NCBI GenBank assembly: GCA_045124995.1
Contig: JBGVMY010000005.1
Span: forward strand, 517 to 64,516
Length of the DNA: 64,000 nt
Direction: 5' to 3'
DNA from: Paludibacteraceae bacterium
Lineage (GTDB): Bacteria > Bacteroidota > Bacteroidia > Bacteroidales > Paludibacteraceae
Made by a program: the position numbers and the translations under genes. Positions 9,105 through 64,000 of this stretch are shown piece after piece (the first letter of the stretch is position 1; the number at the start of each line of letters is the position of its first letter). The notes under the pieces are model-generated. The model saw nothing but the letters and a program-made list of their open reading frames with translations, did not search any database and had not been told where the DNA came from.

Positions 9105-9150
9105 TCTGCCCTGTACACGCATACATGCGCATGCGCGCAAATAAATAAGG

Positions 9151-9179
9151 TACTGCCCGGCATCCGTCGGGCAGTATTT
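9151..9179 (+). terminator. secDF terminator
   Basis: 9-bp stem TACTGCCCG / CGGGCAGTA followed by TTT. Confidence 0.6.
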
Positions 9180-9184
9180 CGATA

Positions 9185-9219
9185 AAACATTAAACACTAA
9201 ACACGAAACACTAAACTAC
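9185..9219. repeat. 7-bp tandem repeat abutting the clpP start codon
   Basis: AAACATT AAACACT AAACACG AAACACT AAACTAC AA-ATG. Confidence 0.85.
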
Positions 9220-9221
9220 AA

Positions 9222-9884
9222 ATGAACGATTTTCTAAAATTTGCCACCTCGCGTGGCATGAACTCGATGCATGTGGAGAATGCCATGAACGCATCGGCTA
9301 GCTACATCAGTCCTTCGATTCTGGAGGAGCGTCAGTTGAATGTCACACAGATGGACGTGTTCTCGCGTCTGATGATGGATCGTATCATCTTTCTTGGTAC
9401 TGAGGTGAACGACTATACCGCCAATGTGATCCAAGCGCAGTTGCTCTATCTAGATTCTGTAGATTCGGAGCGTGATATTAATATCTACCTGAACACTCCT
9501 GGTGGTTCGGTATATGCGGGCTTGGGTATCTATGATACGATGCAGTTTATTCACTCGCGTGTGGCTACAATCTGTACGGGTATGGCTGCTTCGATGGGTG
9601 CCGTATTGCTGGTGGCAGGCGAGAAGGGCATGCGTGCTGCGTTGCCTCATAGCCGCGTGATGATTCACCAGCCATTGGGTGGTATTCAAGGACAGGCATC
9701 GGATATCGAGATTACTGCACGAGAGATTCTCAAACTCAAAGATGAACTCTATCAGATTATCTCCGACCACTCGGGTCAAACTGTAGAGAAGATTCGCCAA
9801 GATGCTGATCGCGACTATTGGATGACTGCTGAAGAGGCACTCAACTATGGTATGATTGATAAGGTATATCGCCGAGAGAAGTAA
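9222..9884 (+). CDS. clpP: ATP-dependent Clp protease proteolytic subunit
   Basis: 220 aa with the ClpP signature regions (..[12 protein letters not shown].., ..[10 protein letters not shown]..). Confidence 0.97.
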
Positions 9885-19191: not shown

Positions 19192-19281
19192 TGTGTCTAA
19201 TATCTAACTTCCAACAGCCGTTAGGCGGTCTATAATCTAATTTTGCTTATACCGATACTTCCCCAATTTATAATTGGGGTG

Positions 19282-19312
19282 CAAAGATAGTAAAATATTT
19301 TGAGTTGTGCAA
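19282..19312 (-). promoter_or_regulatory. promoter for the porin-clpC-trxA operon
   Basis: The minus strand reads CTTGCAC, a 20-nt spacer, then TAtcTTTG. The palindrome CCCCAATT-TAT-AATTGGGG (19261-19279) follows it. Confidence 0.65.
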
Positions 19313-19369
19313 GAAAAATAGTTTTCTGAGTGAAATTTTCTAGAATTTATATATTTCTTAATACCAAGT

Positions 19370-19760
19370 ATTGGTTTTCCCTTGCCGCGGCAGAGAGTTG
19401 ATTGCCGCGGAATGTTGTTGGTTCAAAGTTGTTGAAGTTGTTGATTTTTATATTCTTTTGCCGCGAGCAATGTTGGCGAAGCTTTCACGGGGTCCCCACG
19501 AAATAATCGTTCAACCGAAGGGAGATAAGAACTTCGTGAGTGAGTGCGGGTGAAGAATGTCCGGTGGACATTCGATAGTGAGCGCCTGTCGTAACTCCTA
19601 CGGCAGGAGTTAAGCGAACGGGAGAACAACCGGAGACATTGGCACTTCTAACTCGCCAAGCGAGTTCTGTGCGCTTCAATTGCCGAACGCGAAGTCTCTG
19701 TTGTCGTAAAATAGGGGTGCTCCGCGCGTAGGAGTTTCAATCTCTCACATTTTCCTAGAA
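19370..19760. other. GC-rich non-coding segment with multiple local hairpins (candidate structured RNA or gene relic)
   Basis: No convincing ORF is present. Hairpins lie at 19385-19410 (CCGCGGC/GCCGCGG), 19555-19573 (GAATGTCC/GGACATTC), 19592-19612 (TAACTCCT/AGGAGTTA) and 19650-19666 (AACTCGC/GCGAGTT). TTGCCGCG occurs three times. Confidence 0.35.
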
Positions 19761-19764
19761 AGTT

Positions 19765-19841
19765 ACGCAGAATACACGCACTATTCACGGACAATAGACG
19801 CACTATTCACGCACAATAAACGGACAATAAGCGCACAATTC
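19765..19841. repeat. 11-bp tandem array (7 units)
   Basis: ACGCAGAATAC ACGCACTATTC ACGGACAATAG ACGCACTATTC ACGCACAATAA ACGGACAATAA GCGCACAATTC. Confidence 0.85.
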
Positions 19842-19935
19842 ACCACCTTCAGCTAAGACAGAATGAAGCTTTGAATGATTGATGATTAATCCCCCTTCTT
19901 TTCGCATATATGTGTTAACAACCATTTCTACGCAC

Positions 19936-19997
19936 GCTAACAAGATACCATATATCTGCCTGATAGCTAATACCTTAAAAAACGTATGCGCTAACAA
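19936..19997 (+). promoter_or_regulatory. pair of GCTAACAA motifs upstream of the island regulator gene
   Basis: GCTAACAAG at 19936 and GCTAACAAATG at 19990, 54 bp apart. Both lie upstream of the -33 element at 20033. Confidence 0.45.
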
Positions 19998-20032
19998 ATG
20001 TGTTTTTGCACCTTATCATATACCCCTTCTAC

Positions 20033-20063
20033 TTGCATATCTCAAAAAATTATAGTAACTTTG
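20033..20063 (+). promoter_or_regulatory. promoter of the island regulator gene
   Basis: CTTGCAT (TTG at 20033-20035), a 20-nt spacer, then TAacTTTG (20056-20063). The ATG is only 8 nt downstream of the motif, so the mRNA would be nearly leaderless. Confidence 0.6.
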
Positions 20064-20071
20064 CACGCGAT

Positions 20072-21535
20072 ATGAGATTTTCGTTAACATATCTATTCCG
20101 TCAGGTATGCAGATTGGTCTGCATGCTAGGTCTGGTATGTGGCTTCGCATCCTGCCGCTGGCACGAAGCAAAAGGGGTTATTATCACAGCAGATAGCTTG
20201 GATCAGACAGAGCATGTGATTTATGACGACACTGCAGCGCTAGGCAGAGCCATCCGCAGCTTGGACAATCCCTTTGGCAGATTGCTGATGCCGAATACGC
20301 TCGGCAAAGCGTATTACTATATGGGCAGAAATTTGGAAGATTGCTACATGCAAGTATCCGATGCTGCCAAATGCTATATCGAAGCAGACCGTTTGCAGAT
20401 TGACGACCCCATTTACCGCGGACGCGTGAATGTCTGTATGGGATATCTCTGCAAGCAATACAACTATGATAACTTAGCACTAGTTTTTTATGAACGTGCT
20501 GGCGTTGATTTTAAGGGGAATAGCGAATGGTATTATGCCCAAACATTGTTAGATCAAAGTGAGTTTAGGATTAATCTAAAGGATTATACCTTTGCAGATA
20601 CTTTATTGCAGATAGCACAATCGTATCAATTGGATAGTAGTTATCAAGCACGCTATTATGAAACACGTGGACTTTATTTCTATGCACAACAGCAATACGA
20701 CTCTGCGTTGGTTTATCTTGATAAAGGATTAGATTATTGGCAGAGTGATAGTGAAAAGTGTTTCACTTATTTAAAAATCATGCAAGTATATTATGATTTG
20801 AATGAATTACAGCAAGCTATTCCTTATGCTAAATTAATTCTTTCTGTTTCGAATAATCCCAACTATATTTCGAATGCATACTATTGTTTGATGCAGAGTG
20901 CAGAAAAAGACGGAAATATTACGTTAGTATCAAGTTATGCATCTTCTCGCGAAGACATGAGCCGCCTGCTTGAACAACAAAAAGAAGACTATACCCAAGC
21001 AGTTACAATAATTGAGAATTATAATCATACTCCTCACCCATGGCGATGGGTATGGATTACGCTGACAAGCATACTAATCGTTTGCATCCTCCTTGCTTTG
21101 GGCGCAACTGTATATCATCAACGCGCACATGTGGCTTATCAGCAACTCGATCAACTCTCTATCCATATGGAAAATCAAGAAGCGCGTCTAAATCAAGAGT
21201 TGTATTATCGCCAATTTGCAGAAAAATTATCAAATATCGTTGATAGGTATCATACCCCACACAAGCGCTGGAAAGAATATACGATTCTCAAACGCGATCT
21301 TAATCCATGGTTACATCTATGGCTACGCCAATTGGATACACTTCCTCTATCAGACCGCGAAAAAGTCTATTGTACAATCAGTCTCGTATATTCTCATATG
21401 ACGGATACAGAAATAGCCGAACACCTCTGTTATGACAAACATGGTATTCGTATTTTTAAACAACGAATAGCAAAAAAAATAGGCACAACAGCGGCTTGTT
21501 TGCTTGATTACTTACGCAATTTGCCACTAAGCTAA
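20072..21535 (+). CDS. membrane-tethered TPR-like / LuxR(GerE)-type HTH transcriptional regulator
   Basis: Lipoprotein-like signal (..LVCGFASC), about six TPR-like repeats and one TM helix (WRWVWITLTSILIVCILLALGATVY). A coiled coil follows, then a C-terminal HTH (LSDREKVY..TDTEIAEHL..IRIFKQRIAKKIG). The upstream GTG-initiated extension (from 20000) would cover the gene's own promoter. An alternative ATG lies at 20123. Confidence 0.75.
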   Translation: MRFSLTYLFRQVCRLVCMLGLVCGFASCRWHEAKGVIITADSLDQTEHVIYDDTAALGRAIRSLDNPFGRLLMPNTLGKAYYYMGRNLEDCYMQVSDAAKCYIEADRLQIDDPIYRGRVNVCMGYLCKQYNYDNLALVFYERAGVDFKGNSEWYYAQTLLDQSEFRINLKDYTFADTLLQIAQSYQLDSSYQARYYETRGLYFYAQQQYDSALVYLDKGLDYWQSDSEKCFTYLKIMQVYYDLNELQQAIPYAKLILSVSNNPNYISNAYYCLMQSAEKDGNITLVSSYASSREDMSRLLEQQKEDYTQAVTIIENYNHTPHPWRWVWITLTSILIVCILLALGATVYHQRAHVAYQQLDQLSIHMENQEARLNQELYYRQFAEKLSNIVDRYHTPHKRWKEYTILKRDLNPWLHLWLRQLDTLPLSDREKVYCTISLVYSHMTDTEIAEHLCYDKHGIRIFKQRIAKKIGTTAACLLDYLRNLPLS

Positions 21536-21556
21536 CTACCTCTATTTTCGTAGGGT

Positions 21557-21620
21557 GCTAACAAGTACTATTCTATCTAATTGATAATCAGAGCAGTACC
21601 CCCCCCTATAGTGCTAACAA
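21557..21620 (+). promoter_or_regulatory. second pair of GCTAACAA motifs, upstream of the secreted-protein/protease operon
   Basis: GCTAACAAG at 21557 and GCTAACAAATG at 21613, 56 bp apart. The proximal copy ends 13 nt before the -33 TTG. Confidence 0.45.
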
Positions 21621-21633
21621 ATGCTCTAAACTA

Positions 21634-21664
21634 TTGTGTGCTTCATAATATTGTTGTAATTTTG
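21634..21664 (+). promoter_or_regulatory. promoter of the 21702-26214 operon
   Basis: TTG (21634-21636), a 20-nt spacer, then TAatTTTG (21657-21664). Confidence 0.6.
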
Positions 21665-21701
21665 CAGTCGAAATGAATTAACTGTAAAAAACATCAATAT
21701 T

Positions 21702-22076
21702 ATGAAAAAGATTCTTATTCTCGCATTGTTTGTACTAGGTATGTACAATGCATCCGCGTTCGCCATGGCGCAAGAAATTCTCTTAACAGAAATGTATTCT
21801 ATGTTGCCCTTCGATGATCCAAAGCGTGATACCCTGGGCAGTAGACCAGGACCAAATCGATTCCAAGCCTCCATTGACGGCAATCAATTAAATATTGATA
21901 CGGGCACAGACGCACCCGCATACGCGGAAGTAATTGACCCTGAAACAGGTGAGATCATTGCCGAAGAAGAGTTCACAGGCGAGACAACGATGTCAATTCC
22001 TGAAGAAGGCGACTACGAAGTATATATCTATACTGAATCAGGTACAGTAATGGTTGGTGAGTTTAGTGTGGGATAA
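21702..22076 (+). CDS. small secreted beta-sandwich protein, DUF3244-like
   Basis: Signal peptide MKKILILALFVLGMYNASAFA. The C-terminal pattern ..QASIDGNQLNI..AEVIDPETGEII..GDYEVYIYTESGTVMVGEFSV resembles DUF3244 and T9SS CTD-like folds. I recognised it by eye only. Confidence 0.55.
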   Translation: MKKILILALFVLGMYNASAFAMAQEILLTEMYSMLPFDDPKRDTLGSRPGPNRFQASIDGNQLNIDTGTDAPAYAEVIDPETGEIIAEEEFTGETTMSIPEEGDYEVYIYTESGTVMVGEFSVG

Positions 22077-22183
22077 TTTCATAAGAGAAAATTGTACCTA
22101 AATACCCAACCAAACCACGCGACTCTCCGCCATTACTTTTTATTAATTAATAATTATCTATTAACTTTTAAAACATTTATCCT

Positions 22184-23059
22184 ATGAAAAAGTTTTATTT
22201 TATTCTGCTATCTGCCATTATATTTGGCGTAGTCATTGTTGCATGCACATCGCAAGGTGATGAATGTGCTCCAATATCTGGGATAGAGAGCCAATTACAA
22301 GACAATGAACCTGCCAATACCGAGTCGGATTGGGCAGCGTTTAATCAAGCGTTGGACTCGTTGAATGCAAAGTATGCTCGTATCCAAAAAACAGGCAAAC
22401 AATATACTTCTGTCTTGCCGATTAGTCCTGTTGCTGATGCGGATGCAGGAGGTGCAGTAATCGGACATGAAATCCTTAGAAGATTCCCCAATGGTAGTGT
22501 TCAGGTAGAAGAAGTGGTAGTAGTATATAGTGTGATGTATTCATTCGAAGAACATAAGGAGCGTACCGAAATAGACACTACTACGACGTTATTTCCAGCC
22601 CCTCGTACTAATCCATATACATACCCAATATATCCCCCACATTCTATTCCAGTACTGCTCACGAATACGCCTTGCGCAGAATATGGTTTAAATCATAATA
22701 TTATTATAGAGCAGTTGTTGAATGTTGATGGTGTCTATGAAATGTCTCGACAGCAATTGTTAAATGCGATTATTAGCATATACAATCGAGAAATATCATT
22801 AATATCTAGACAAACAGGTAATTGGATTCTCGAACATAGTTCATCGGAATATCTTCCTGAAATAGATACTGAAGTTCAGCAAACCAACGGTCATTTTGCT
22901 ATTTCGATTGCTCGTCTAGATATAACAATGAGGCGCAATTATACAGATGACTATTTAGAAAGGGTTAATGCTTCTACATTAAGCAATCGCATCAAGGATT
23001 TACTGAAAACGTATGCGAGTGTAATGTATTATAGTAGCTCTTTGTGGGTAGCGGAATAA
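22184..23059 (+). CDS. lipoprotein of unknown function
   Basis: 291 aa with lipobox ..VVIVAC-TSQ. I could not recognise any family. Confidence 0.7.
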   Translation: MKKFYFILLSAIIFGVVIVACTSQGDECAPISGIESQLQDNEPANTESDWAAFNQALDSLNAKYARIQKTGKQYTSVLPISPVADADAGGAVIGHEILRRFPNGSVQVEEVVVVYSVMYSFEEHKERTEIDTTTTLFPAPRTNPYTYPIYPPHSIPVLLTNTPCAEYGLNHNIIIEQLLNVDGVYEMSRQQLLNAIISIYNREISLISRQTGNWILEHSSSEYLPEIDTEVQQTNGHFAISIARLDITMRRNYTDDYLERVNASTLSNRIKDLLKTYASVMYYSSSLWVAE

Positions 23060-23067
23060 AAATCATA

Positions 23068-23100
23068 CTAAGGGAATCGCAAAAATGCTGGTTCCCTTAG
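23068..23100 (+). terminator. intra-operon hairpin (possible attenuator or partial terminator)
   Basis: 9-bp stem CTAAGGGAA / TTCCCTTAG with a 15-nt loop, followed by AT-rich sequence but no clean T-run. Confidence 0.4.
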
Positions 23101-23146
23101 TAAATATTATTAACACAAAATATTAACCTTTTAAATTAATTGCATT

Positions 23147-23644
23147 ATGAGAAAAATTTTCTTTGTGCTAGTTTGCTCATTCATCGCATTAGGATGGATG
23201 GGATGTGAAATGGAAACTCCAACAAGTCTTCGTTTGTCAAGAAACAAAACTGCAGATGGAAGTGATTCTAGCAATCAATGTGAATTTCCATACTTAAACT
23301 TTCAGAAATTTTTTGCAGTTGAGGTTGATTCGGCTGCGTCTTGCTGTGGTATTGATAGCTTTGCAATCAAATCGCCATGGATGCAAGAACGTATAAATAC
23401 TTTCCTTGCGGATAGTGCACGTCTCAAGGAAGAATTGTACACGTCGCTGCAATTTGACTATTTCACTGATACTCTTGGGACGGATTATATTCTTGAAAAC
23501 AAATTTATCTTGCGTAATTGTGAGGGTACATTGCTTGTTGATTTTGAGGATAATGATAGTATCATAAACGCTATTTATTATAATGATCATTTACCTATTT
23601 ATACGCTTGCTTTTATTGAAATAGGATTGATACCAAATATTTGA
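23147..23644 (+). CDS. lipoprotein of unknown function
   Basis: 165 aa with lipobox ..LGWMGC-EME and several Cys residues. I could not recognise any family. Confidence 0.7.
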   Translation: MRKIFFVLVCSFIALGWMGCEMETPTSLRLSRNKTADGSDSSNQCEFPYLNFQKFFAVEVDSAASCCGIDSFAIKSPWMQERINTFLADSARLKEELYTSLQFDYFTDTLGTDYILENKFILRNCEGTLLVDFEDNDSIINAIYYNDHLPIYTLAFIEIGLIPNI

Positions 23645-23694
23645 GAATATTTTACTTCTTGATAATATAATCGAAGAATAAAACCACTAATAGT

Positions 23695-26214
23695 ATGAAA
23701 AAGTTTGTATTTATTTTTGTAGCATGTTTTATCAATCTTGCTACATTTGCTGATCCTGCGTGTACAGATTCTCTTTACGTTATTCAACCTAATGGGGATA
23801 CACTATGGACGTATTTGTGCGGTGATGAGTTTTACCATTGGCGCTCTACCATTGATGGACATGTAATTATGCGTGACTCAAACAATTACTATCGCTATGC
23901 TATTGTAGAAGCTGATTCGCTGCAAATCTCAGCTATAACGGCTCATAACATTGAGGAGCGTAGTATAGCGGAGCGAGAGTTTGTAAATACCAATAGTATG
24001 CTAGTTAAACAATTTATACATTCTGCGATTCAGGAGATTGATAAGACCATTGAACCAGAAGAAACATCTATGCAACCTCCACGTCAAGGAGTGGCAAATA
24101 ATACCACAGAAAGGGAACCCGTTGTTGGAACTAGGAAGATTTTGACTATCTTGATTGATTTTAAGGATTATTCATTCACTCGAACTCGAGCGGAATTCGA
24201 TAGTCTGATGAATCAAGAATACGGTGCGGTCGGTCTCAATACTGGAAGTGTACGCCAATATTACCGAGAAAACTCTTATGGACAATTAGATGTAATATCT
24301 ACCGTTGTCGGTCCTTTTAGAGCAGATAAGAAGCGTAGCGAGTATTCTTGGAAACATACTGGTAACAAATTAGAGGGGAGACGAGAGATTCGAGAATTAG
24401 TTCGTGAAGCCATTAACCATGCAAAGGATTATGTTGATTTCTCCACATTAGATGGCGATGGTGATGGAGAGGTAGATTGCATCCATGTTGTATTCGCAGG
24501 TGAAGGACTATCCAGTGGAAGTACTGATTCGTATATTTGGCCGCATAATTCAGAACTGCTTATTGCAGTTGAGCATGACAATGTAAAAGCAAAAAAATTT
24601 ATGATCACTTCAGAACTTTATAAACAAGGTCAAATAGCTACAATCGGTACCATTTGCCATGAGTTCGGTCATATTCTAGGAGCACCTGACTTTTATGACT
24701 TGCGTTATACTGATGCTGATGCCGATCAGTGTTTTTGCGCTATAGGAAAGTACGATGTAATGAGTCGTGGCTATAATAATAATAATGGTCGTACCCCTGC
24801 TCACCACAATCCTTATACTAAGTGTTATATCTTTGGCTGGGACACACCTAAAACTATTTCAAGTGAAACAAAAGAATATACGGTTTCTTCTAGTACCAAC
24901 GATGCAGGAAATATCTATCGTATTGATACACAAACAGACGATGAGTTTTTCCTACTAGAACATCGCAGTTACCATAGTTTTGATCAGTACATTCCTAATT
25001 GGGGTTTATTAATTTATCATGCTCATAAAGATTTAAAAACAGCAATAGATAATGATGAAGACATCAATTACACCCACCCACTAAAACTATATTTGGTAAA
25101 CGCTTCTGCGGATTCGAATCCTAATAATTCTCTTGATTCCTATGGAAAGATTAGTACACCGCGTGCTTTCCCAGGGAATCAGCTTGATAAAACCATGTTT
25201 ACAAGTACAACTATTCCAAGTGCCAAAGCATGGAACGGTAGTGATTTAGGAGTCAATTTATATTTTATTCGCAGAACAACCGCAACTGATATCAAGTTCA
25301 CAGTCAATCCACAAATTCAAGGTCCATCACAATTATGCGGTACACAAGATTACTATGTGGTAAGTAATGTTCCTTCTAGTGATACTGTGGAGTGGAGTTA
25401 TTCTACTGATATCTCAGAATCTATGATGTTTCCTGCATTGCTTTTTAATGACGGAAGAGAGGGAGGGCGTGTTACTATTCAACGAGGAAATACACCACAG
25501 ATATCTGGACCAATTATACCAGAGGATACAACAATGCAAATGGCTTCTTATGGTCTAAACAATCATTTTGCTCAATTCCCAGAAATTGATTTACCAACGG
25601 AACCTTATGTTGGTACTGCAACTTTGCACGTAAATGTCAAGGGTGGGAATGGACAGTATCAGCTGGAAAAAGAAATTGTGCTACCTGAATTTGCGACGCC
25701 TTCGTTACTTGCGCAAGGGTCTTACTTTTGGCGTGTCAATGAAAGTCGTACATTACTAGAAGAATCTTGTAATGAAATTAACTCTGAATATATTAAGTGG
25801 TATGTTCGATACCCTAATGCAGAAACGGAAGTTGAATTTACAGGACGTAGCATTACGTTAACTCCTACAGAAATGGGAGAGATGACAGTGCGTATTGTTA
25901 ATGATTGCGGATGTGAAACTAGCAATGAGACTACTTATACATATTCAGTATACAATATAAGACCTCTATCATACCCTAATCCCAATACTACTCCGACATT
26001 GCCAGTTAACTTTGAAATTGAACGATTTGGTCAAACAGACGAATTCTATAATCTAGATTTGTGGCATCAAACATATGGTCGTGTACGTCATAAGGTTACA
26101 AATGAGTCAAATGTCAATATCCCTGTGGGTGACTTGCCAGAAGGTTGGTATCAGATTGTTCTATCATTAGATGGCCAAATCTTGGATTCTGGTAGTGTAT
26201 ATATCCAACATTAA
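23695..26214 (+). CDS. M6 (immune inhibitor A-like) zinc metalloprotease with T9SS C-terminal sorting domain
   Basis: 839 aa with a signal peptide, the N-terminal ..QPNGDTL..GDEFYHW.. block and the zinc motif HEFGHILGAPDFYD. The C-terminus (..NIPVGDLPEGWYQIVLSLDGQILDSGSVYIQH) is typical of Por/T9SS sorting domains. Confidence 0.8.
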   Translation: MKKFVFIFVACFINLATFADPACTDSLYVIQPNGDTLWTYLCGDEFYHWRSTIDGHVIMRDSNNYYRYAIVEADSLQISAITAHNIEERSIAEREFVNTNSMLVKQFIHSAIQEIDKTIEPEETSMQPPRQGVANNTTEREPVVGTRKILTILIDFKDYSFTRTRAEFDSLMNQEYGAVGLNTGSVRQYYRENSYGQLDVISTVVGPFRADKKRSEYSWKHTGNKLEGRREIRELVREAINHAKDYVDFSTLDGDGDGEVDCIHVVFAGEGLSSGSTDSYIWPHNSELLIAVEHDNVKAKKFMITSELYKQGQIATIGTICHEFGHILGAPDFYDLRYTDADADQCFCAIGKYDVMSRGYNNNNGRTPAHHNPYTKCYIFGWDTPKTISSETKEYTVSSSTNDAGNIYRIDTQTDDEFFLLEHRSYHSFDQYIPNWGLLIYHAHKDLKTAIDNDEDINYTHPLKLYLVNASADSNPNNSLDSYGKISTPRAFPGNQLDKTMFTSTTIPSAKAWNGSDLGVNLYFIRRTTATDIKFTVNPQIQGPSQLCGTQDYYVVSNVPSSDTVEWSYSTDISESMMFPALLFNDGREGGRVTIQRGNTPQISGPIIPEDTTMQMASYGLNNHFAQFPEIDLPTEPYVGTATLHVNVKGGNGQYQLEKEIVLPEFATPSLLAQGSYFWRVNESRTLLEESCNEINSEYIKWYVRYPNAETEVEFTGRSITLTPTEMGEMTVRIVNDCGCETSNETTYTYSVYNIRPLSYPNPNTTPTLPVNFEIERFGQTDEFYNLDLWHQTYGRVRHKVTNESNVNIPVGDLPEGWYQIVLSLDGQILDSGSVYIQH

Positions 26215-26242
26215 GTCTATCTATTCTGCTTAATATATTTCC

Positions 26243-26278
26243 CCTCACCCTTTTCCACGTGAATTGGGTGAGGTTTTT
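26243..26278 (+). terminator. terminator of the island operon
   Basis: 8-bp stem CCTCACCC / GGGTGAGG followed by TTTTT. Confidence 0.65.
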
Positions 26279-26290
26279 GTATTGAGATGT

Positions 26291-26298
26291 GCTAACAA
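26291..26298 (+). promoter_or_regulatory. fifth GCTAACAA motif, downstream of the island operon
   Basis: GTGCTAACAAATGCACCTT, in the same orientation as the other four copies. No gene on the plus strand lies downstream of it. Confidence 0.35.
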
Positions 26299-26321
26299 AT
26301 GCACCTTGCTCTTGCATAAAC

Positions 26322-26355
26322 AAAAGAGTGTGCCCACCGTGTGGCACACCCTTTT
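26322..26355. terminator. bidirectional terminator (GH57 side)
   Basis: Stem GTGTGCC / GGCACAC flanked by AAAAG and CTTTTG. Confidence 0.6.
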
Positions 26356-26359
26356 GAGT

Positions 26360-26401
26360 GGATATCGGTTACCGGATAATGGGTAATGGATATCGGATTA
26401 T
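26360..26401. repeat. 7-bp tandem repeat overlapping the GH57 stop codon
   Basis: GGATATC GGTTACC GGATAAT GGGTAAT GGATATC GGATTAT. Confidence 0.8.
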
Positions 26402-47904: not shown

Positions 47905-48070
47905 CAAAAGTGGGGTAAAAGTGGGAGGAAAGTAGCGTAAAGGCTCGGTAAAGTATCGGCAATAACTAAGTTATCACTAACTAATCACTAACTTATCACT
48001 AACTAATCACTAACTAACGACGGCTAAATGACGGCTAAACGATAGCATACAAATAGCATACAAACAAAAG
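47905..48070. repeat. 166-bp array of about 15 consecutive 11-bp units
   Basis: CAAAAGTGGGG TAAAAGTGGGA GGAAAGTAGCG TAAAGGCTCGG TAAAGTATCGG CAATAACTAAG TTATCACTAAC TAATCACTAAC TTATCACTAAC TAATCACTAAC TAACGACGGC TAAATGACGGC TAAACGATAGCA TACAAATAGCA TACAAACAAAAG. Confidence 0.9.
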
Positions 48071-48076
48071 AACGAT

Positions 48077-48640
48077 ATGAAACAAACAGAAAAAGAATTT
48101 GCGGCCCTGGTCAAGGAGCAGAAAAGCACGATATATAGTATCTGCTATATGTTCTCCAAAGACAAGGATGAGATAGATGATCTGTTTCAAGAGACATTGA
48201 TCCATCTGTGGCAGGGCTTTGAGAAATTTCGCAACGAGAGTAAAATTGAGACATGGGTGTATCGCGTGACGATGAACACCTGTATCTCAATGGACAGAAA
48301 ACAGAAAAGACGCGGCGAGCGTATTCCGTTGGCGGTGGACATTGACTTGTTCGATGAAAACGACAAAGACATGGAGCAAGTGCAGATGCTTTACAAGCGG
48401 ATTCAGAAACTTGGGTTGTTTGACAGAGCGATAATCATGCTTTGGTTGGAGAACCTAAGTTACGATGAAATCGGGGAAATCGTAGGCATTAGTGCGAAAA
48501 ATGTGTCGGTACGACTGGTGCGTATTCGTGAACAACTTAGGAAAATTAATAGTTACTATTTCGTTGAGAACTATAAACCTTATAAACGATATATATTATG
48601 GATGAATTGCAAGAAATGCGCGAGCAACTGGCTGCGCTGA
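48077..48640 (+). CDS. ECF-type RNA polymerase sigma-70 factor
   Basis: Region 2 (..ETLIHLWQGFEKF..TWVYRVTMNTCI..) and region 4 (..LSYDEIGEIVGISAKNVSVRLVRIR..). Confidence 0.88.
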   Translation: MKQTEKEFAALVKEQKSTIYSICYMFSKDKDEIDDLFQETLIHLWQGFEKFRNESKIETWVYRVTMNTCISMDRKQKRRGERIPLAVDIDLFDENDKDMEQVQMLYKRIQKLGLFDRAIIMLWLENLSYDEIGEIVGISAKNVSVRLVRIREQLRKINSYYFVENYKPYKRYILWMNCKKCASNWLR

Positions 48641-49230
48641 AAGAGAAATTGAATAAGCAGGAGATAGTCAATGAAAGACTTATGCGGGATGTATTGGTGA
48701 AAAAACAAAGAAAAGATGTAATAGGCTCATGGGTTTTGCTGATCTTCTTGGGTAGTGTGCTTGTTTTTATATGGACGATGAAACTTTGTGTGCCAGAGAT
48801 GGATGTGGATTGGTGGCAACTAGGTTATTTGACTATCGCATCTATCTTAATGCTTGTAATTACAATAACACCCGTTTTTATGATTAAGATGAAAGATATT
48901 CGTTCTGGTCAATTATTGGACGTAGCAAAACAAATGAAGCGATCACATACATATATAAATGGTCAAGGGCATAAACTAATGATTTTAATAATCACATTGG
49001 GACTTGTTTTTGATTTTACACCTTCAACGTTCCATGGCGGAAAAGTGGATTGGGTAGGAGTTTGTATGTCTATTGTATGTTTGTTAACTATATTTATTAT
49101 CGGTATAGTTCGTAGGTCACGGGGTAAGAGTTTTTATAGAAATAGATGGGAGAAGGAACTGGAACAAATTGAAGAAATGTCCGATTTAAACGAGGGAAAT
49201 GATAAGGCGGAATCGGAAACGAAAAACTGA
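48598..49230 (+). CDS. membrane protein, candidate anti-sigma partner
   Basis: N-terminal coiled coil (MDELQEMREQLAALKEKL..) followed by four TM helices. It overlaps the sigma gene by 43 nt. Confidence 0.6.
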   Translation: MDELQEMREQLAALKEKLNKQEIVNERLMRDVLVKKQRKDVIGSWVLLIFLGSVLVFIWTMKLCVPEMDVDWWQLGYLTIASILMLVITITPVFMIKMKDIRSGQLLDVAKQMKRSHTYINGQGHKLMILIITLGLVFDFTPSTFHGGKVDWVGVCMSIVCLLTIFIIGIVRRSRGKSFYRNRWEKELEQIEEMSDLNEGNDKAESETKN

Positions 49231-49260
49231 AAAGTGAACACTCGAAGTGGAAAATGATAG

Positions 49261-49298
49261 AAAAAACGCATATCTCTTGCAGAAGTGCGTTTTTTTTT
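49261..49298 (+). terminator. terminator that embeds the -33 of the rsfS promoter
   Basis: 10-bp stem AAAAAACGCA / TGCGTTTTTT with a 15-nt loop, then a T-run. Confidence 0.6.
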
Positions 49299-49307
49299 GT
49301 ACCTTTG
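49277..49307 (+). promoter_or_regulatory. promoter for rsfS-ftsH-M16
   Basis: CTTGCAG (TTG at 49277-49279), a 20-nt spacer, then TAccTTTG (49300-49307). Confidence 0.65.
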
Positions 49308-49402
49308 CACGGATTTTTATACAATGCAGAAATATGCCAAAATGGCAGGCGAGTTGCGTTTGGCAAGGAATTTGTAGGAATAATAGAAAACAAAAATACA
49401 TA

Positions 49403-49768
49403 ATGAAAAAAGAAGTATCAACAAAGAAATTGGTAGAGACGATTGTAGAAGGTATTCAAAATCGTAAGGGACAACGTATCGTGACTGTGGATTTGCGTAA
49501 GTTGAAAGACGCACCTGCGGAGTATTTTATCATTGCTGAAGGTGGTAGTAATACCCAAGTAGTGGCTATTGCAGATGAGGTGGATAGTTTTGTACGCACT
49601 CAAACGCACGTTCACCCATTGGGCATCGACGGACGCGACAACGCAGAGTGGATAGCCATGGACTACGGCACGATATTTGTGCATATCATGCAACGTGAGC
49701 CACGTGCGTACTACGATATTGAGCATCTGTGGGCAGACGGCAAGATCACAGAGATCGCGGATGTGTAA
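49403..49768 (+). CDS. rsfS: ribosome silencing factor
   Basis: 121 aa in the RsfS/iojap pattern (..DYFIIAEG.S..Q..AI..). The start is the internal ATG downstream of the promoter. Confidence 0.88.
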   Translation: MKKEVSTKKLVETIVEGIQNRKGQRIVTVDLRKLKDAPAEYFIIAEGGSNTQVVAIADEVDSFVRTQTHVHPLGIDGRDNAEWIAMDYGTIFVHIMQREPRAYYDIEHLWADGKITEIADV

Positions 49769-49772
49769 TGTT

Positions 49773-49793
49773 GAATTAAGAATTAAGAATTAT
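49773..49793. repeat. 7-bp tandem repeat abutting the ftsH start
   Basis: GAATTAA GAATTAA GAATTAT C-ATG. Confidence 0.8.
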
Positions 49794-49794
49794 C

Positions 49795-51891
49795 ATGGCA
49801 GAACAACAAAAGCCAACACCTAAACAACCAAACAAACAGAATAAGAAGCCAAAGCGTTCGCCGCTGACATGGCTCTATTATGCTGTGATGATCGGTCTGC
49901 TGGTGTTTTTCTTCTTCCCTGTGGGGGGTGAGAAAGGTGCAGACAAGAACTTGAGTTATACCAAGTTTACTGCGTATATCGACAACGATGCTGTAGCATC
50001 GGTCGTGGTGTACGATGATAATAGTGCTGAGGCGAAGATTCGCCCCGAGAGTTATGCCCTTGTGTTTGGTAACCAAGAGGCAGGCGAGGACGTGAAAGGC
50101 AAACTGAAAGCCCAAGTGCCTTCGGTGGAGGAGTTTGCGAAATACATTGATACTGTGAATGTTAGTCGCAAAGAAAATGGCAAAGCGGCGATTGATGTCA
50201 GTTATGCCAAGTCGAAAGACTACTGGTATATGATATTGGTGAATATCTTGCCTATCGCGCTGATTGTGCTGTTCTTCGTATGGATGAGCCGCGGTATGGC
50301 GAACGCAGCAGGCGGCGGTCCTGGCGGTATCTTCAACGTGGGTAAAGCCAAAGCGGAGGTGTTTGACAAGGACAAGAAGAACAAAGTGACCTTCAAGGAT
50401 GTGGCAGGTTTGGCAGGCGCTAAGCAAGAGGTAGAAGAGATTGTTTCGTTCCTCAAGAACCCAACCAAATACACCAACTTGGGCGGTAAGATTCCTAAGG
50501 GAGTGCTGCTGGTAGGCCCTCCAGGAACGGGTAAGACTTTGCTAGCAAAGGCAGTGGCAGGCGAAGCGAATGTGCCATTCTTCTCGATGTCGGGTAGCGA
50601 CTTTGTGGAGATGTTCGTAGGTGTGGGTGCGAGTCGTGTGCGCGATTTGTTCCGTCAAGCGAAGGAGAAGGCCCCTGCGATTATCTTTATTGATGAGATT
50701 GATGCTGTGGGTCGTGCCCGTGGCAGAAATAATATGATGGGTGGTGGCAACGATGAGCGCGAATCTACTTTGAATCAATTGCTTACCGAGATGGACGGTT
50801 TTGGCAGTAACTCGGGCGTGATTATCTTGGCAGCCACCAACCGTGCGGATGTGCTGGATGCCGCATTGCTGCGTGCAGGTCGTTTTGACCGTCAGATACA
50901 TGTGGAGTTGCCAGACTTGCAAGAGCGTAAAGAGATTTTTGGTGTACACTTGGCACCTATCAAGATAGACAAGGATTTGGATATCAATTTCTTGGCAAAG
51001 CAAACACCAGGATTCTCGGGTGCGGATATTGCGAATGTCTGCAACGAGGCAGCGTTGATAGCAGCGCGTAATGACCACAAGAGCGTGAGCAAGCAAGACT
51101 TTATGGATGCGGTGGACCGTATCATTGGCGGTTTGGAACGCAAGAATAAAATTATGACCGAGGAGGAGAAACGTTCAGTAGCGTATCACGAGGCAGGTCA
51201 TGCTACTATCTCTTGGCTCTTGCGCTATGGTAATCCTTTGGTGAAGGTGACTATCGTGCCTCGCGGAATGGCGTTGGGCGCAGCATGGTACTTGCCTGAG
51301 GAGCGACAACTGACTAACAAAGAGCATATTATGGATAACCTCTGTTCGTTGTTGGGCGGTCGTGCTGCGGAAGAAGTGTTCTTGAAGCAGACTTCCACAG
51401 GTGCACTGAACGACTTAGAGCGCGCTACCAAACAAGCATACGCGATGGTGGCATACTATGGTATGTCCGACAAGTTGAAGAACCTCAGTTATTACGATTC
51501 GACGGGCAGATATGATATGGGAATTACTAAACCCTACTCGGAGAAGACAGCGGAAGTGATTGATAATGAGACAAGTGCGATCATTGCCGAGCAGATGGCT
51601 CGTGCGAAGAGGATCCTTGAGGAGAATGCAGAAGGACATAATAAGTTGGCCGAGATGCTGATCGAGAAAGAGGTGATTACTTCGGAGGATGTTGAATCGG
51701 TATTGGGTCCACGTCCTTGGACTAGCCGCACCGATGAAATCATCGAGGCAAATGAGGCGATGAGGCGAGAAGGCGATGAGGCAAAAACCGAGGAGAAACC
51801 AAAGAAGAAACGCGCGCCTCGTAAGAAGAAAGAGGAAACGGAACCAACTACGATAGAAGAACCATCAATTCCTAATAGTGAAACGATCTAA
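49795..51891 (+). CDS. ftsH: ATP-dependent zinc metalloprotease FtsH
   Basis: Walker A GPPGTGKT, the SRH region and zinc motif HEAGHA. It has a Lys/Glu-rich C-terminal tail. Confidence 0.97.
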
Positions 51892-54775: not shown

Positions 54776-55243
54776 TTAGTCCATCTGCTTGAGTAGAGAG
54801 GTGCAACCCTCCATCAAGTCGCGGTAGGTGGCTTCGAAGTCGCCTGTGTACCAAGGGTCTGCCACGTCGCGGTCAAGCAAACGGCGAATCTTAGGTTGGG
54901 GCAGGGAGGCGTCATGCTGCATGATGTCCTCACCCAACACACGGCGGAGGTTACGGATATTATAATCTTCCATGCAGAGAATAGCATCAAACGTCTCGTA
55001 ATCTTCACGAGCGATTTGGCGTGCCGCATGGCGCGTGAAAGGAACATTGTGTGCTGAAAGACAACGTTTTGCAGGTGGGTACATGTCGTTTCCAATCTCC
55101 TCGCGTGAAGTAGCGCAAGAGTCAATCAGGATGGAGTCTAAATTTGATAATCTAATGTCTAAAGCGACAAGATGGCGCATAATCATCTCTGCCATCACGC
55201 TACGGCAGATATTACCGTGACAGATGAAAAGGATTTTGTTCAT
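54776..55243 (-). CDS. low molecular weight protein-tyrosine phosphatase
   Basis: CX5R(S) P-loop ..FICHGNICRS... Confidence 0.88.
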   Translation of the reverse strand: MNKILFICHGNICRSVMAEMIMRHLVALDIRLSNLDSILIDSCATSREEIGNDMYPPAKRCLSAHNVPFTRHAARQIAREDYETFDAILCMEDYNIRNLRRVLGEDIMQHDASLPQPKIRRLLDRDVADPWYTGDFEATYRDLMEGCTSLLKQMD

Positions 55244-55244
55244 A

Positions 55245-55649
55245 TTAATGAGAATCGTTTTTTGCTTTGGGAAGAATAAAGCCCACTACGATGCAACCAA
55301 TCAGTGCCGCTGCGGCCACAATGATACGTAAAGTGGTGCTATGAATGAAAAATATAAGCGAAATACTAACCATTGTCAACATGAGCAAAACAATATAGAT
55401 GCGTTTGCGGGTTGTAATACCTCCTTTTTGTTGATAATCAATGATATACTTTCCTAAAAAAGATTGCAAAAGCCATGCTTGCAAGCGAGTAGAACTCTTG
55501 TAGAAACACCACGAAGCAAGCAATACAAAGGGTGTGGTAGGCAATCCCGGTACTACAATACCAATTGTACCTAACACTACAGCTATACTTCCCGCAAGGA
55601 TAAATAAATAACGTAGGTGGTTTTGCTTTGAAGAATGGTTTGGAGTCAT
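55245..55649 (-). CDS. ybaN: DUF454 (YbaN) family inner membrane protein
   Basis: ..GIVVPGLPTTPFVLLASWCF.. signature and three TM helices. Confidence 0.8.
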   Translation of the reverse strand: MTPNHSSKQNHLRYLFILAGSIAVVLGTIGIVVPGLPTTPFVLLASWCFYKSSTRLQAWLLQSFLGKYIIDYQQKGGITTRKRIYIVLLMLTMVSISLIFFIHSTTLRIIVAAAALIGCIVVGFILPKAKNDSH

Positions 55650-55661
55650 TGAGCGAGTTGC

Positions 55662-56762
55662 CTAATGAGATTGTGTGATGATTTTAGCTGCATTTTTTGG
55701 TGCAGGTTCTAAACCCAAAATATACTGAATAGTATGATATTCATTGATCATTTGTTCGCGATAATGGGTGTCGTTGATTAATCGTCTGAGTTCATGTTCA
55801 ATATTTGTCTGTGTGAAACGCTGACCTACCAATTCTTGTATGACTTCTTTGTTTGGAATGATGTTGACAAGTGTAAAGTGCTTGATGTTGAACATAATAG
55901 GCTTTAATAGCCATTCAAGATATCTGCTACCCGCTACGTAGTAAACAGCTGTCTGTGGACATCCAATTAGAGCCGTTTCCAAGGTGGCTGTACCCGAATT
56001 GACCACAGCTGCCTTGGCTTGTGCGACTGCCATATAAGTATCGCGCGTAAGTTGTTCGTTGGGTTGCAAAAAAGATTGATAAAACGAATCTTTTATACCT
56101 GGTGCAGCAGTCACTACTATTTGATATTGTTTTCCTGCTACATTCCGTGCCGCTTTTAACATCACAGGTAGGCAGTGACTAATTTCGCTAGGGCGAGAGC
56201 CAGGCAGGAGCGCAATAGTGGGTGTAAGGTTTGGAGTGTAGGAGGAGTTAAAACTGCGGATACAATCTGCTGTCGGATTACCGACGTAGTGGCACTTATA
56301 GCCAAATTTAGCATAGAAATCGGGTTCGAAAGGGAAAATACCCAATATTTCGTCGCAGTATTTTGCGATAGAATGTACGCGCCATTTTTTCCATGCCCAA
56401 ATCTTAGGTGGAATATAATACACCACGCGTGTTTTGGGCAAATGCTGTTTGCAGAACTTTGCCATCTTTAGGTTGAATGATGGATAGTCTATCAAAATCA
56501 ACACATCGGGCTCTTGTTCTAATAGTGCCTCTTTTGCGATACGAAAGTTACGTTTAACCTTATCTAGATTTTGCAGTACTGCCACAAAACCCATATATGC
56601 CATATCGCGATAATCAACACGAATATCGCATTCCTCTGCACGCATCTTGTCGCCGCCTAATCCTACGAACGATGCTTGCGAATCTTCTACTCGCAATGCT
56701 TTTATGAGATTGGAAGCATGCAAATCTCCTGACGCTTCACCGGCTATGAGAAAATAGTTCAT
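55662..56762 (-). CDS. lpxB: lipid-A-disaccharide synthase
   Basis: N-terminal ..IAGEASGDLH.. and the LpxB family pattern. Confidence 0.92.
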   Translation of the reverse strand: MNYFLIAGEASGDLHASNLIKALRVEDSQASFVGLGGDKMRAEECDIRVDYRDMAYMGFVAVLQNLDKVKRNFRIAKEALLEQEPDVLILIDYPSFNLKMAKFCKQHLPKTRVVYYIPPKIWAWKKWRVHSIAKYCDEILGIFPFEPDFYAKFGYKCHYVGNPTADCIRSFNSSYTPNLTPTIALLPGSRPSEISHCLPVMLKAARNVAGKQYQIVVTAAPGIKDSFYQSFLQPNEQLTRDTYMAVAQAKAAVVNSGTATLETALIGCPQTAVYYVAGSRYLEWLLKPIMFNIKHFTLVNIIPNKEVIQELVGQRFTQTNIEHELRRLINDTHYREQMINEYHTIQYILGLEPAPKNAAKIITQSH

Positions 56763-63437: not shown

Positions 63438-63487
63438 GATAATTTATGATTGTTTATTAAAATTACATACTTTTCCAATTTCGCATG

Positions 63488-63518
63488 CAAAGTTACTACA
63501 TTTTTTTCACTTGTGCAA
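63488..63518 (-). promoter_or_regulatory. promoter for GH3-ridA
   Basis: The minus strand reads TTTGCAC, a 20-nt spacer, then TAacTTTG. Confidence 0.65.
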
Positions 63519-63561
63519 ATATTTTTTGCATTTCCTCTTGTCGTTTCCCTGTCAATTAGCC

Positions 63562-63682
63562 GTTGATAGTCAGTGATTAGTTAGTGATTAGTTAGTGATT
63601 AGTTAGTTATTAGTTAGTGATTGGTTAGTGATTAATTAGTGATTGCCGATACTTTACCGATATTTTACCTAGTTCTTGCGGA
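63562..63682. repeat. 121-bp array of 11 consecutive 11-bp units, inverted homolog of 47938-48014
   Basis: GTTGATAGTCA GTGATTAGTTA (x3) GTTATTAGTTA GTGATTGGTTA GTGATTAATTA GTGATTGCCGA TACTTTACCGA TATTTTACCTA GTTCTTGCGGA. Confidence 0.9.
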
Positions 63683-63875
63683 CTTACGCGCGCGCGTACC
63701 TAGTATATAATATATAATGTGTACACGCACGCGCAAAATCCTTATAGATCGTGTCTGTTGGACATATAAGAATACTCCGATTCAACTGACTATAAAAAAC
63801 ATGAAAAATGCCACAATTGATAATCAGTCACTTATGTAGAAAGTGATGTTTTATAGCATTTTTCTTGCTTAAAAA

Positions 63876-63907
63876 TTTGGTCAGTTCAGAAAAAAGCAGT
63901 ACCTTTG
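63876..63907 (+). promoter_or_regulatory. strong promoter cassette at the window edge
   Basis: TTTGG (63876-63880), a 20-nt spacer, then TAccTTTG (63900-63907). The cassette (AAAAAAGCAGTACCTTTGCAGCC) is the same as for the tRNA genes. Confidence 0.6.
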
Positions 63908-63921
63908 CAGCCGATTTCGCA

Positions 63922-64000
63922 ATGAACGCAAGTGAGCGACTACTGACTGCGAAACTGCTAAAAAATGTAATGCTGAAAATCAGCCACTTACAAAGAAAAG
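63922..64000 (+). CDS. possible 5' end of a gene running off the window
   Basis: ATG at 63922 is open to the window end (MNASERLLTAKLLKNVMLKISHLQRK..). It could instead be the leader of a stable RNA. Confidence 0.25.
   Translation, partial: MNASERLLTAKLLKNVMLKISHLQRK

Follow-up and report, generated by a model that had tools for sequence, protein, structure and literature searches.

A genomic island in Paludibacteraceae combines a predicted transmembrane regulator with exchangeable protease cassettes

What is the gene of a secreted protease doing behind that of a predicted transmembrane regulator, at a junction where most relatives carry neither? The question is raised by contig JBGVMY010000005.1 of a Paludibacteraceae bacterium (GCA_045124995.1), of which we analyzed a stretch of 64,000 nucleotides, hereafter the window. 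Between a gene for a porin (a Porin_10 protein) and a gene for a GH57 protein lie five genes, A to E. The original prediction for this region read them as five same-strand genes that form one self-contained module, in which an envelope signal controls a secreted protease. All five open reading frames (ORFs) are present on the + strand at the positions it gave them, but the genes do not form a single unit. We consider it slightly more probable than its contrary that the locus as a whole is a two-layer module, in which a constant sensor and regulator core, A and B, is joined to swappable exported cargo, here a protease with a guardian lipoprotein.

The layering is seen when the island is compared with others at the same site (loci used for comparison carry numbers beginning with L). 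Similarity by blastn to L081-L083 and L087 covers 19719-22083, stops just past the stop codon of B (22076) and resumes at 26211, at the stop codon of E. Three parts of the island, all on the + strand, are thereby distinguished. The left arm (19719-22083) consists of A, B and the DNA upstream of them and is conserved with these four loci. The replaceable cargo cassette (22084-26210), here C, D and E, has no blastn similarity to them, while the arms and the flanks align. The right arm (26211-26298) is only 88 bp long and is 86-95% identical in the four loci despite their different cassette; it contains an intrinsic terminator, CCTCACCC-N15-GGGTGAGGTTTTT, at 26243-26278 and ends at a copy of GCTAACAA (26291-26298).

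The cassettes differ in the class of protease that they encode. In L081-L084, A-B is followed by proteins of 111, 334 and 138 amino acids (aa), an S8 protease, a 193-aa protein and a second S8 protease; in L087 (GCA_045123775.1), by proteins of 118, 416, 135, 128 and 120 aa and one S8 protease. L085 has the content of the window, A-B-C-D-M6, and its cassette is the same one, about 89% identical. L087 is 97.8% identical to the window in the left flank and 92.8% in the right flank, yet only 84% in the A-B arm, and its S8 cassette is unrelated. In L081-L083, the left flank is 82-86% identical, the right flank 92% and the A-B arm 95%, again with an unrelated cassette, which holds two S8 proteases. 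These discordant identities indicate that arm and cassette have both been exchanged by recombination among lineages. The same insertion site thus carries interchangeable cassettes, and near-identical strains differ in whether they hold M6 or S8 proteases. The idea of five genes acting as one self-contained module therefore has to be given up: A, B and their upstream DNA are constant, C-D-E is swapped for S8 cassettes, and strains with about 98% identical flanks hold S8 subtilases at the same site.

The right end of the island bears a trace of another copy of the core. A degenerate copy of the A promoter region, an orphan remnant on the + strand, lies at 26288-26320, includes the GCTAACAA at 26291-26298 and overlaps the end of the right arm. 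L081 and L083 keep a longer version of it, with a 53-bp match to 19911-19963. Tandem modules, as found in L097, where two stand one behind the other, would explain this remnant. The right-end repeat was also considered as an attachment (att) site and rejected, since it is this promoter copy.

That the whole segment is an insertion was established by comparison with relatives lacking it. A genome scan with the GH57 protein sampled 80 relatives at species level, uncultured Paludibacteraceae and Bacteroidales from gut and rumen. The GH57 and porin genes are directly adjacent in 63-65 of the 80, with a spacing of 10-526 bp (median 111 bp), and the gene order glycosyltransferase (GT)-GH57-porin-ClpC is retained in the same relatives. 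None of these 63-65 has a homologue of A-E at the GH57-porin junction, as expected from the proposal that the island is accessory. When 19192-26397 was compared by blastn with the empty sites, only 19246-19320, on the porin side, matched; the insertion is therefore placed at about 19321-26298. We conclude that the A-E segment is an inserted, AT-rich accessory island. The island proposed earlier is real, although its left limit near 19321 makes it slightly wider than the start then given (19936). The contrast in composition claimed at the time is also present: GC content per kb is 0.35-0.40 at 20-26 kb and 0.44-0.53 on either side, and GC content at third codon positions is 0.27-0.40 in A-E against 0.57-0.65 in the ClpC, porin, GH57 and GT genes. 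No integrase or transposase gene was found in the island. As for a target-site duplication, the porin-side hairpin is all that the empty sites have in common with the ends of the island. No further copies of any module protein were found in the rest of the window. In public collections, the A-E proteins are all present, and any name given to them is 'hypothetical protein'.

Gene A (20072-21535, + strand; 487 aa) encodes a predicted transmembrane one-component regulator. It begins with a lipoprotein-type signal (Cys28), followed by a tetratricopeptide repeat (TPR) domain at about aa 60-300, predicted to be periplasmic, a transmembrane helix at aa 327-348 (21050-21115), two long helices and a LuxR/GerE-type helix-turn-helix (HTH) domain at aa 428-482 (21353-21517). 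The family is large, with more than 1194 homologues in a first search and 298 clusters at 50% identity, and is essentially unnamed in public databases. In a domain scan of 76 diverse full-length members, 38 matched TPR_12, 7 GerE (best 2.8e-5), 2 sigma-70 region 4 and 9 DUF6377. Against the PDB, the family profile matched TPR proteins (E 2e-15) and the LuxR-type HTH of EvgA (E 6.5e-4). An AlphaFold2 (AF2) model of aa 367-487 (pLDDT 91.4) shows two long helices and then a four-helix bundle. Of the 50 matches that Foldseek listed for it, most, and all those ranked highest, are LuxR/GerE DNA-binding domains (probability up to 0.99), among them those of RhlR, SdiA, VpsT, DosR, NarL, RcsB and EvgA; the DosR C-terminal domain superposes with a template modeling (TM) score of 0.77 and a root-mean-square deviation of 1.6 Å. 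Cys28 is nearly invariant and stands in a lipobox context, and hydropathy gives a single strongly hydrophobic segment (aa 327-348), which together imply that the TPR domain lies outside and the HTH inside. The predicted topology is thus a periplasmic TPR domain, one transmembrane helix and a cytoplasmic LuxR/GerE-type HTH. Family profiles and structure model agree here with the architecture first read from the locus, namely a lipoprotein signal, TPR repeats, one transmembrane helix, a coiled region and a LuxR-type HTH.

In L167 (6147-7596) and L170 (2-823), the A-family gene is broken up over several frames and is probably a pseudogene, with B and the cargo downstream intact. Such frameshifted copies indicate that the family turns over.

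Gene B (21702-22076, + strand; 124 aa), which closes the left arm, encodes a secreted beta-sandwich protein of the DUF3244 family. The protein scores 23.7-24.7 bits against PF11589, just below the gathering score of 25, and a profile of six orthologues matches the PDB entry 3SD2, 'DUF3244 family', with an E-value of 1e-5 over residues 36-122, nearly the whole mature protein. The suggestion that B is DUF3244-like is well supported by these two matches. The possibility that B is a free-standing mimic of a type IX secretion system (T9SS) C-terminal domain (CTD) was rejected, with an hhalign probability below 1% against a CTD profile.

The pairing of A with B extends well beyond this site. We fetched 80 metagenomic loci with an A alignment and scanned their ORFs with hidden Markov models (HMMs) built in this analysis. 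Of the 47 A genes whose contigs leave room for it, 35 have a homologue of B as the next gene downstream. Among the 15 loci with at least 6 kb downstream, the cargo includes an S8 protease in 8; the rest have other exported proteins, some with CTD-like ends. L103 and L105 have an A-B-M6 arrangement. Other chromosomal sites are occupied as well: in L090, A-B lies beside AbiEi/AbiEii and KwaA/KwaB, and the pair is also found elsewhere in L095 and L097. The L095 pair, beside AbiEii, belongs to the same metagenome-assembled genome as L004, in which the GH57-porin site is empty. In L093, A stands among housekeeping genes, and B has decayed. The A-B module is widespread and horizontally exchanged in uncultured gut and rumen Paludibacteraceae, and it seems to settle in variable, defense-island-like regions. 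The defense-related neighbors in L090 (7154-9565 and 16319-17808) are AbiEi/AbiEii and, downstream of the module, KwaA/KwaB (Kiwa) and a VapE-like gene; AbiEii of L095 is at 9144-9785. In L150 and L158, the ORFs that follow the modules resemble AbiE on inspection by eye.

The DNA around A and B carries recurrent motifs. The left arm begins with a conserved region upstream of A (19719-20071, + strand). Its elements are a tandem array, three G[CT]TAACAA motifs (19914, 19936 and 19990) and the -7 box TAACTTTG (20056-20063). When 19690-20075 was aligned with four island-bearing loci, mean column identity was 92%; invariant columns begin at about 19708, and blastn matches at 19719. The array consists of 6.8 copies of the 11-bp unit ACGCACAATAA (19765-19839, found with TRF) about 230 bp upstream of A, and the number of copies differs from locus to locus. 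It may be a binding array of the iteron type. Each unit spans one helical turn; the array recurs in L101 and L136, again upstream of A, and in L106, where it stands at the module's end.

Between A and B, a promoter- and operator-like region (21536-21701, + strand) holds G[CT]TAACAA twice (21557-21564 and 21613-21620), the near-palindrome TTGATAATCA (21581-21590) and the -7 box TAATTTTG (21657-21664). Eight A-B spacers were aligned, from loci in which A is as little as 45% identical. Conserved in them are both G[CT]TAACAA sites, TTGATAATCA, a -33 TTG and TAATTTTG; the near-palindrome reads TTGATAATCAA in several other loci. Across 37 metagenomic A-B spacers, the palindrome is found with at most one mismatch in 26 and the -7 box in 33. 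The word GCTAACAA is found 7 times in the 64-kb window, where 2.3 occurrences are expected. Five of these copies are on the + strand in the three intergenic regions of the island; they include two pairs, spaced 54-56 bp, of which one precedes A and the other B. A dimeric LuxR-type HTH could plausibly use the palindrome and the G[CT]TAACAA repeats as operators, and a link to the HTH of A is putative. Intergenic -7 boxes of the Bacteroidetes type (TAnnTTTG) occur in the island only before A (20056) and before B (21657), consistent with the single promoter that had been proposed for a B-E operon. Terminator-like hairpins are found at 26243-26278 and 26328-26349. The -7 box ends 8-9 nt before the ATG of A in the window (20056-20074), L093 and L095, which implies a leaderless or near-leaderless regulator mRNA; the L090 extract stops at the motif. 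B, unlike A, has a leader of about 30 nt.

The last gene of the cassette, E (23695-26214, + strand; 839 aa), encodes a secreted M6 (InhA-like) zinc metalloprotease. A signal peptide (aa 1-19) and an N-terminal region precede the M6 catalytic domain (aa 151-442; 24145-25020), which is followed by a PKD-like domain (~aa 539-573) and a divergent T9SS type-A CTD (~aa 759-839; 25969-26211). The catalytic domain scores well above the curated cut-offs of TIGR03296 (190.7 bits; cut-off 110.8) and PF05547 (69.1 bits; cut-off 22), contains the zinc motif HEFGHILGAPD at aa 322-332 (HEXXH with downstream G..D) and is similar to the InhA structure 4YU5 (E 6e-9). E thus resembles InhA and the MEROPS M6 enzymes in the models passed, the HEFGHxxGxxD motif and the match to 4YU5. 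It differs in that InhA is a Sec-secreted Bacillus enzyme without a T9SS domain, whereas E adds a PKD-like module, a T9SS CTD and a dedicated lipoprotein. For the tail, E has many full-length homologues, and PF18962 is matched by 19 of 20 of their C-termini that were aligned (best E 2e-10). A profile of the E-family C-termini matches the CTD of mirolase (8QB1, E 1.5e-15) and a cargo CTD from F. johnsoniae (8GLK_D, E 1.3e-3). E itself ends in ...SGSVYIQH, and distant homologues end in ...LIINKK or ...LIVK. The T9SS tail is real but divergent in the window copy, and export by the T9SS is predicted. The proposed combination of an M6/InhA-like protease with a T9SS sorting domain is accordingly sound for the protease at the level of the single protein, and for the sorting domain at family level.

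Genes C and D, which precede E, are lipoprotein genes without a known family. C (22184-23059, + strand; 291 aa; signal ...VIVAC) has no sequence match in Pfam, NCBIfam or the PDB. Homologues of C stand directly after B in L085 (94% identity), L144 (E 3e-58) and L150; L150 also has a second copy, and L156 and L168 have relatives too. D (23147-23644, + strand; 165 aa) has its lipobox cysteine at position 20 and belongs to an M6-linked family of 24 database homologues, all unnamed. In this family, the signal and lipobox, MRKIxFxxxCSFIALGWMGC, are almost invariant, a core, IDSxxxCCGxDSFxIKSPWMQERIN, is conserved, and the sequences diverge afterwards. According to an all-versus-all BLASTP comparison, the gene just before the M6 gene is a D-family member at each of the M6 loci whose upstream genes we checked: L085 (56% identity to D), L097 (37% over the aligned part), L076 (three paralogues), L098, L099 and L127 (by HMM). 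D and M6 genes are thus linked, with or without A-B. The absence of a known family for C and D, noted from the outset, stands insofar as neither has a relative in these databases, but they are not orphans, as D recurs before M6 genes and C after B. Compared with its L085 orthologue, D of the window has 56% identity; the corresponding figures for A, B, C and E are 80%, 90%, 94% and 85%. We regard D as a candidate that is most likely a cognate inhibitor or guardian, or else a partner, of E, by analogy with the system described next. In a more distant lineage, represented by L076 (6065-9683), L098 (9429-12559) and L099 (1577-4707), a D-like and M6 pair is inserted between the glycosyltransferase gene and GH57, across GH57 from the island site, and no A-B is present.

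In Tannerella forsythia, the genes of certain T9SS peptidases are immediately preceded by those of potempins, small lipoproteins of the outer membrane that act as inhibitors (PMC9890683). The peptidases, called KLIKK, come from disparate families, and the potempins are conserved in the signal peptide and diverge in the mature part (PMC9890683). The D-E pair parallels the potempin/KLIKK pairs in several ways, the likeness being genetic only. Here, too, peptidases of disparate families (M6, and S8 in sister cassettes) have related T9SS CTDs, and a co-oriented small lipoprotein gene stands immediately before each peptidase (D before E, and likewise in L085, L097, L076, L098 and L127). The D-family signal is conserved while the mature part diverges, the E-family tail profile matches the CTD of mirolase, itself a Tannerella KLIKK peptidase, and the pair is accessory and strain-variable. 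In the S8 cassettes, as in Tannerella, the small ORF runs 4 bp into the start of the protease gene; D and E differ from the arrangement of overlap or a gap of at most 5 bp.

Other features set the two systems apart. M6 is not among the six KLIKK enzymes, and E lacks the K-L-I-K-K terminal motif. The model of D, of moderate confidence, is alpha+beta and resembles neither the 5-stranded oligonucleotide/oligosaccharide-binding (OB) barrel nor the 8-stranded up-and-down beta-barrel. The host is a gut or rumen Paludibacteraceae, and the D-E pair lies behind a TPR-LuxR transmembrane regulator and a DUF3244 protein. For the KLIKK system, which has been stated to be absent from other bacteria (PMC9890683), a term search of the 2015 paper turned up no regulator (PMC4404884). 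Homology of D to potempins was also considered and is not supported, the PDB profile search and Foldseek both being negative; only the genetic analogy stays. The statement that this gene combination has no described function holds in that our literature search found no description of it, with DUF3244 appearing only in gene lists, but the D-E pair has a precedent in potempin/KLIKK.

How might such a module work? What we infer, from the signal sensed and the regulation of B-E by A, through the interaction of A with B, to the inhibition of E by D and the actual export of E by the T9SS, is the following. The TPR domain of A, predicted to be periplasmic, would sense an envelope or extracellular cue, possibly together with B. 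The HTH of A would then act at TTGATAATCA and the G[CT]TAACAA repeats upstream of B and switch on the B-C-D-E operon, perhaps along with A itself. E would be exported by Sec and then by the T9SS via its CTD. D would most likely bind E, either in the periplasm or at the outer membrane, and act on it as a cognate inhibitor or guardian, the part that potempins play for KLIKK peptidases. Recombination between the conserved arms would swap the cassettes and so place different proteases, M6 or S8, under the same sensor in related strains. The earlier idea of an envelope regulator that controls a secreted protease is strengthened in this form, with A-B recurring beside secreted cargo and motifs upstream of B; it loses the notion that the module is self-contained.

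Several observations weigh against this reading. As a single sequence, A has no significant match to a GerE or TPR model (TPR_12 reaches a sub-threshold 16 bits), and its C-terminal 119 aa have no GerE match, the sole signal being a weak one to the C-terminus of FimZ (E 0.15). The Foldseek E-values for the HTH are weak (0.4-2) for what is a small domain, and the assignment rests on the family profiles and the model. Of the proposed operator elements, the G[CT]TAACA pair is present in 10 of the 37 spacers, in closer relatives only, and the palindrome is absent from 11. B is missing downstream of 12 of the 47 A genes, and several A-B pairs precede non-protease cargo, which indicates that the core is not protease-specific. 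The CTD of E, at its extreme C-terminus, remains below threshold in the window copy (PF18962, 15-15.8 bits with a cut-off of 27; TIGR04183, 11 bits with a cut-off of 23). D has no sequence relative in Pfam, NCBIfam or the PDB, and its profile matches neither potempins nor any other inhibitor. Its AF2 model (pLDDT 69, core 70-92) is an alpha+beta structure of moderate confidence, to which Foldseek matched nothing in the PDB (best E 0.45, TM score below 0.3) and hence no known inhibitor fold. Lastly, the D and E genes are separated by 50 bp and do not overlap.

One of these points, the lack of an inhibitor-like fold in D, is also what one might expect if the locus served nutrition in the manner of a polysaccharide utilization locus (PUL). 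A, as a SusR-like or DUF6377-like regulator, would then sense peptides or products of protein breakdown in the periplasm and induce the protease E, together with the surface lipoproteins C and D and the binding protein B, which would help to capture or process the substrate, with D as a substrate-binding or anchoring partner and not an inhibitor. We think this rather doubtful, though it has points in its favor. Nine of the 76 A-family members scanned, all distant, match DUF6377 (PF19904; best 3.3e-5), and a DUF6377 protein is encoded beside carbohydrate-utilization genes in two papers, listed in one by domain name only within a PUL and described in the other as a predicted membrane-associated transcriptional regulator on an Alistipes fosmid. 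A shares with SusR-like and DUF6377 regulators a periplasmic sensor, a single transmembrane helix and a cytoplasmic DNA-binding domain in one polypeptide. Every cargo protein carries an export signal, and the cargo is diverse and not solely proteolytic. However, A itself has no DUF6377 match, and the genes that it would control code for secreted proteases and lipoproteins instead of a Sus-like uptake system; in none of the loci examined does the module come with SusC/SusD or transporter genes. The strict pairing, D with M6 and another fast-evolving lipoprotein family with S8, better fits the co-evolution of inhibitor and enzyme, and cassette replacement at strain level would be unusual for core nutrition.

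The same replacement, with near-identical strains carrying different protease cassettes between conserved arms, would be expected of polymorphic antagonism, in which the T9SS protease is an effector against competitors or host defense proteins, D (perhaps also C) confers immunity, and the swapping of cassettes reflects an arms race. D is hypervariable relative to the neighboring genes and its paralogues have multiplied in L076, modules lie in variable regions beside AbiE and Kiwa genes, and KLIKK peptidases have been proposed to act on both host and bacterial competitors, with potempins protecting the producer. No toxin-type domain or classic array of orphan immunity genes was seen, however; M6 and S8 enzymes are general secreted proteases, and the target cells are hypothetical. 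We therefore hold antagonism to be unlikely as a separate explanation, while noting that it overlaps heavily with the two-layer reading and differs from it mainly in biological purpose. The neighborhood of some copies (AbiEi/AbiEii, KwaA/KwaB and VapE-like genes) and the foreign composition of the segment could also be taken to mean an anti-phage defense module, or a chance assembly of unrelated, horizontally acquired genes. Either would be very surprising. All five proteins carry export signals, PADLOC gave no real match beyond a weak SLATT-type one (E 1e-3) to the transmembrane and coiled region of A, and the A-B (35 of 47) and D-M6 adjacencies recur in many independent contexts, with conserved intergenic motifs, which speaks against chance.

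Within the two-layer reading, the role of B invites comparison with small exported partners of other regulators. ToxR/ToxS and VtrA/VtrC of Vibrio are membrane-spanning one-component regulators with a small exported partner, ToxS or VtrC, encoded next door. B is likewise an exported neighbor; it is a DUF3244 beta-sandwich, and its interaction with A is putative. The orientation of ToxR is opposite to that of A, with an N-terminal winged helix instead of the C-terminal LuxR-type HTH. In the PorA-PorXY-SigP system of Porphyromonas gingivalis, a small exported protein relays envelope or T9SS status to a membrane-bound regulator (PMC7712824). PorA has a true CTD and acts through a two-component system, whereas B has no CTD profile similarity; this is an analogy only. 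A more speculative thought, to which we would assign little probability, is that the TPR domain of A has as its ligand B, or a fragment that the cassette protease cuts from B at the cell surface, with feedback possible. It would fit the tight linkage and co-conservation of A and B, the predicted periplasmic location of the TPR domain and the extracellular protease among the cargo. The protease cassette would then be both controlled by the signal and shaping it, and the module would be a Gram-negative, membrane-tethered analogue of the TPR-HTH (RRNPP-type) peptide signaling of Firmicutes, coupled to KLIKK/potempin-like pairs.

If the two-layer reading is right, the principle of potempins and KLIKK peptidases, which has been presented as unique to the periodontal pathogen Tannerella forsythia, may be widespread in uncultured gut and rumen Paludibacteraceae. 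Two additions of the locus, without a reported counterpart in Tannerella, would be a dedicated transmembrane regulator of the TPR-LuxR type, with its DUF3244 partner, and the cassette-level swap of protease and lipoprotein between near-identical strains. A testable role for the large, essentially unnamed A family would annotate many genes at once. D-type lipoproteins, if they inhibit M6 enzymes, would represent a new class of metalloprotease inhibitor, and DUF3244 gains its first concrete functional context from this locus.

The S8-type cassettes have their own recurrent genes. A small-lipoprotein family of their own is encoded directly upstream of the protease, the ORF often overlapping the S8 start by 4 bp (L087 13704-14908; L090 13393-13764; L095 12295-12771; L106 2651-3082). 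These proteins have an invariant G-x-W near the mature N-terminus, which we take to be a lipocalin-like signature, and are candidate S8 inhibitors; a sequence search of the PDB gave no match and no potempin. The first gene after B in these cassettes usually encodes a member of a secreted family of 334-439 aa without a Pfam assignment (L081 8390-9394; L087 12391-13641; L090 12069-13388; many of L100-L179). Its C-terminus, GADFVFADDYxLRPLSEVxAFIxENxHLPEIxSAxEMQENGVS, is highly conserved and ends in a coiled coil.

The remaining features of the locus are noncoding. The porin-side conserved intergenic segment (19246-19320), which lies outside the island and marks its left limit, contains the hairpin CCCCAATTTATAATTGGGG at 19261-19279. 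From there to the left arm, between the porin promoter and 19718, a variable junction filler (19321-19718) contains a GC-rich hairpin, CCGCGGCA-N8-TGCCGCGG, at 19385-19410. The filler is partially shared with L085 (to 19482) and is a patchwork, short pieces of which occur upstream of other A-family genes (L101, L132) and one in L010. A structured RNA at 19321-20071 was considered and rejected: Rfam (E-values up to 0.1) and ARAGORN gave no match, and the fold z-scores were -1.4 and -2.4. In the C-D spacer, inspection of the sequence revealed a stem-loop on the + strand (23068-23100), CTAAGGGAA-N15-TTCCCTTAG, with a 9-bp stem and a 15-nt loop, which could be an attenuator or an RNA processing site of the operon transcript. 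Elsewhere in the window, other kb bins of low GC content (0.39-0.41, where 0.44-0.53 is usual) at 48001-50000, 55001-56000 and 63001-64000 may be further accessory segments.

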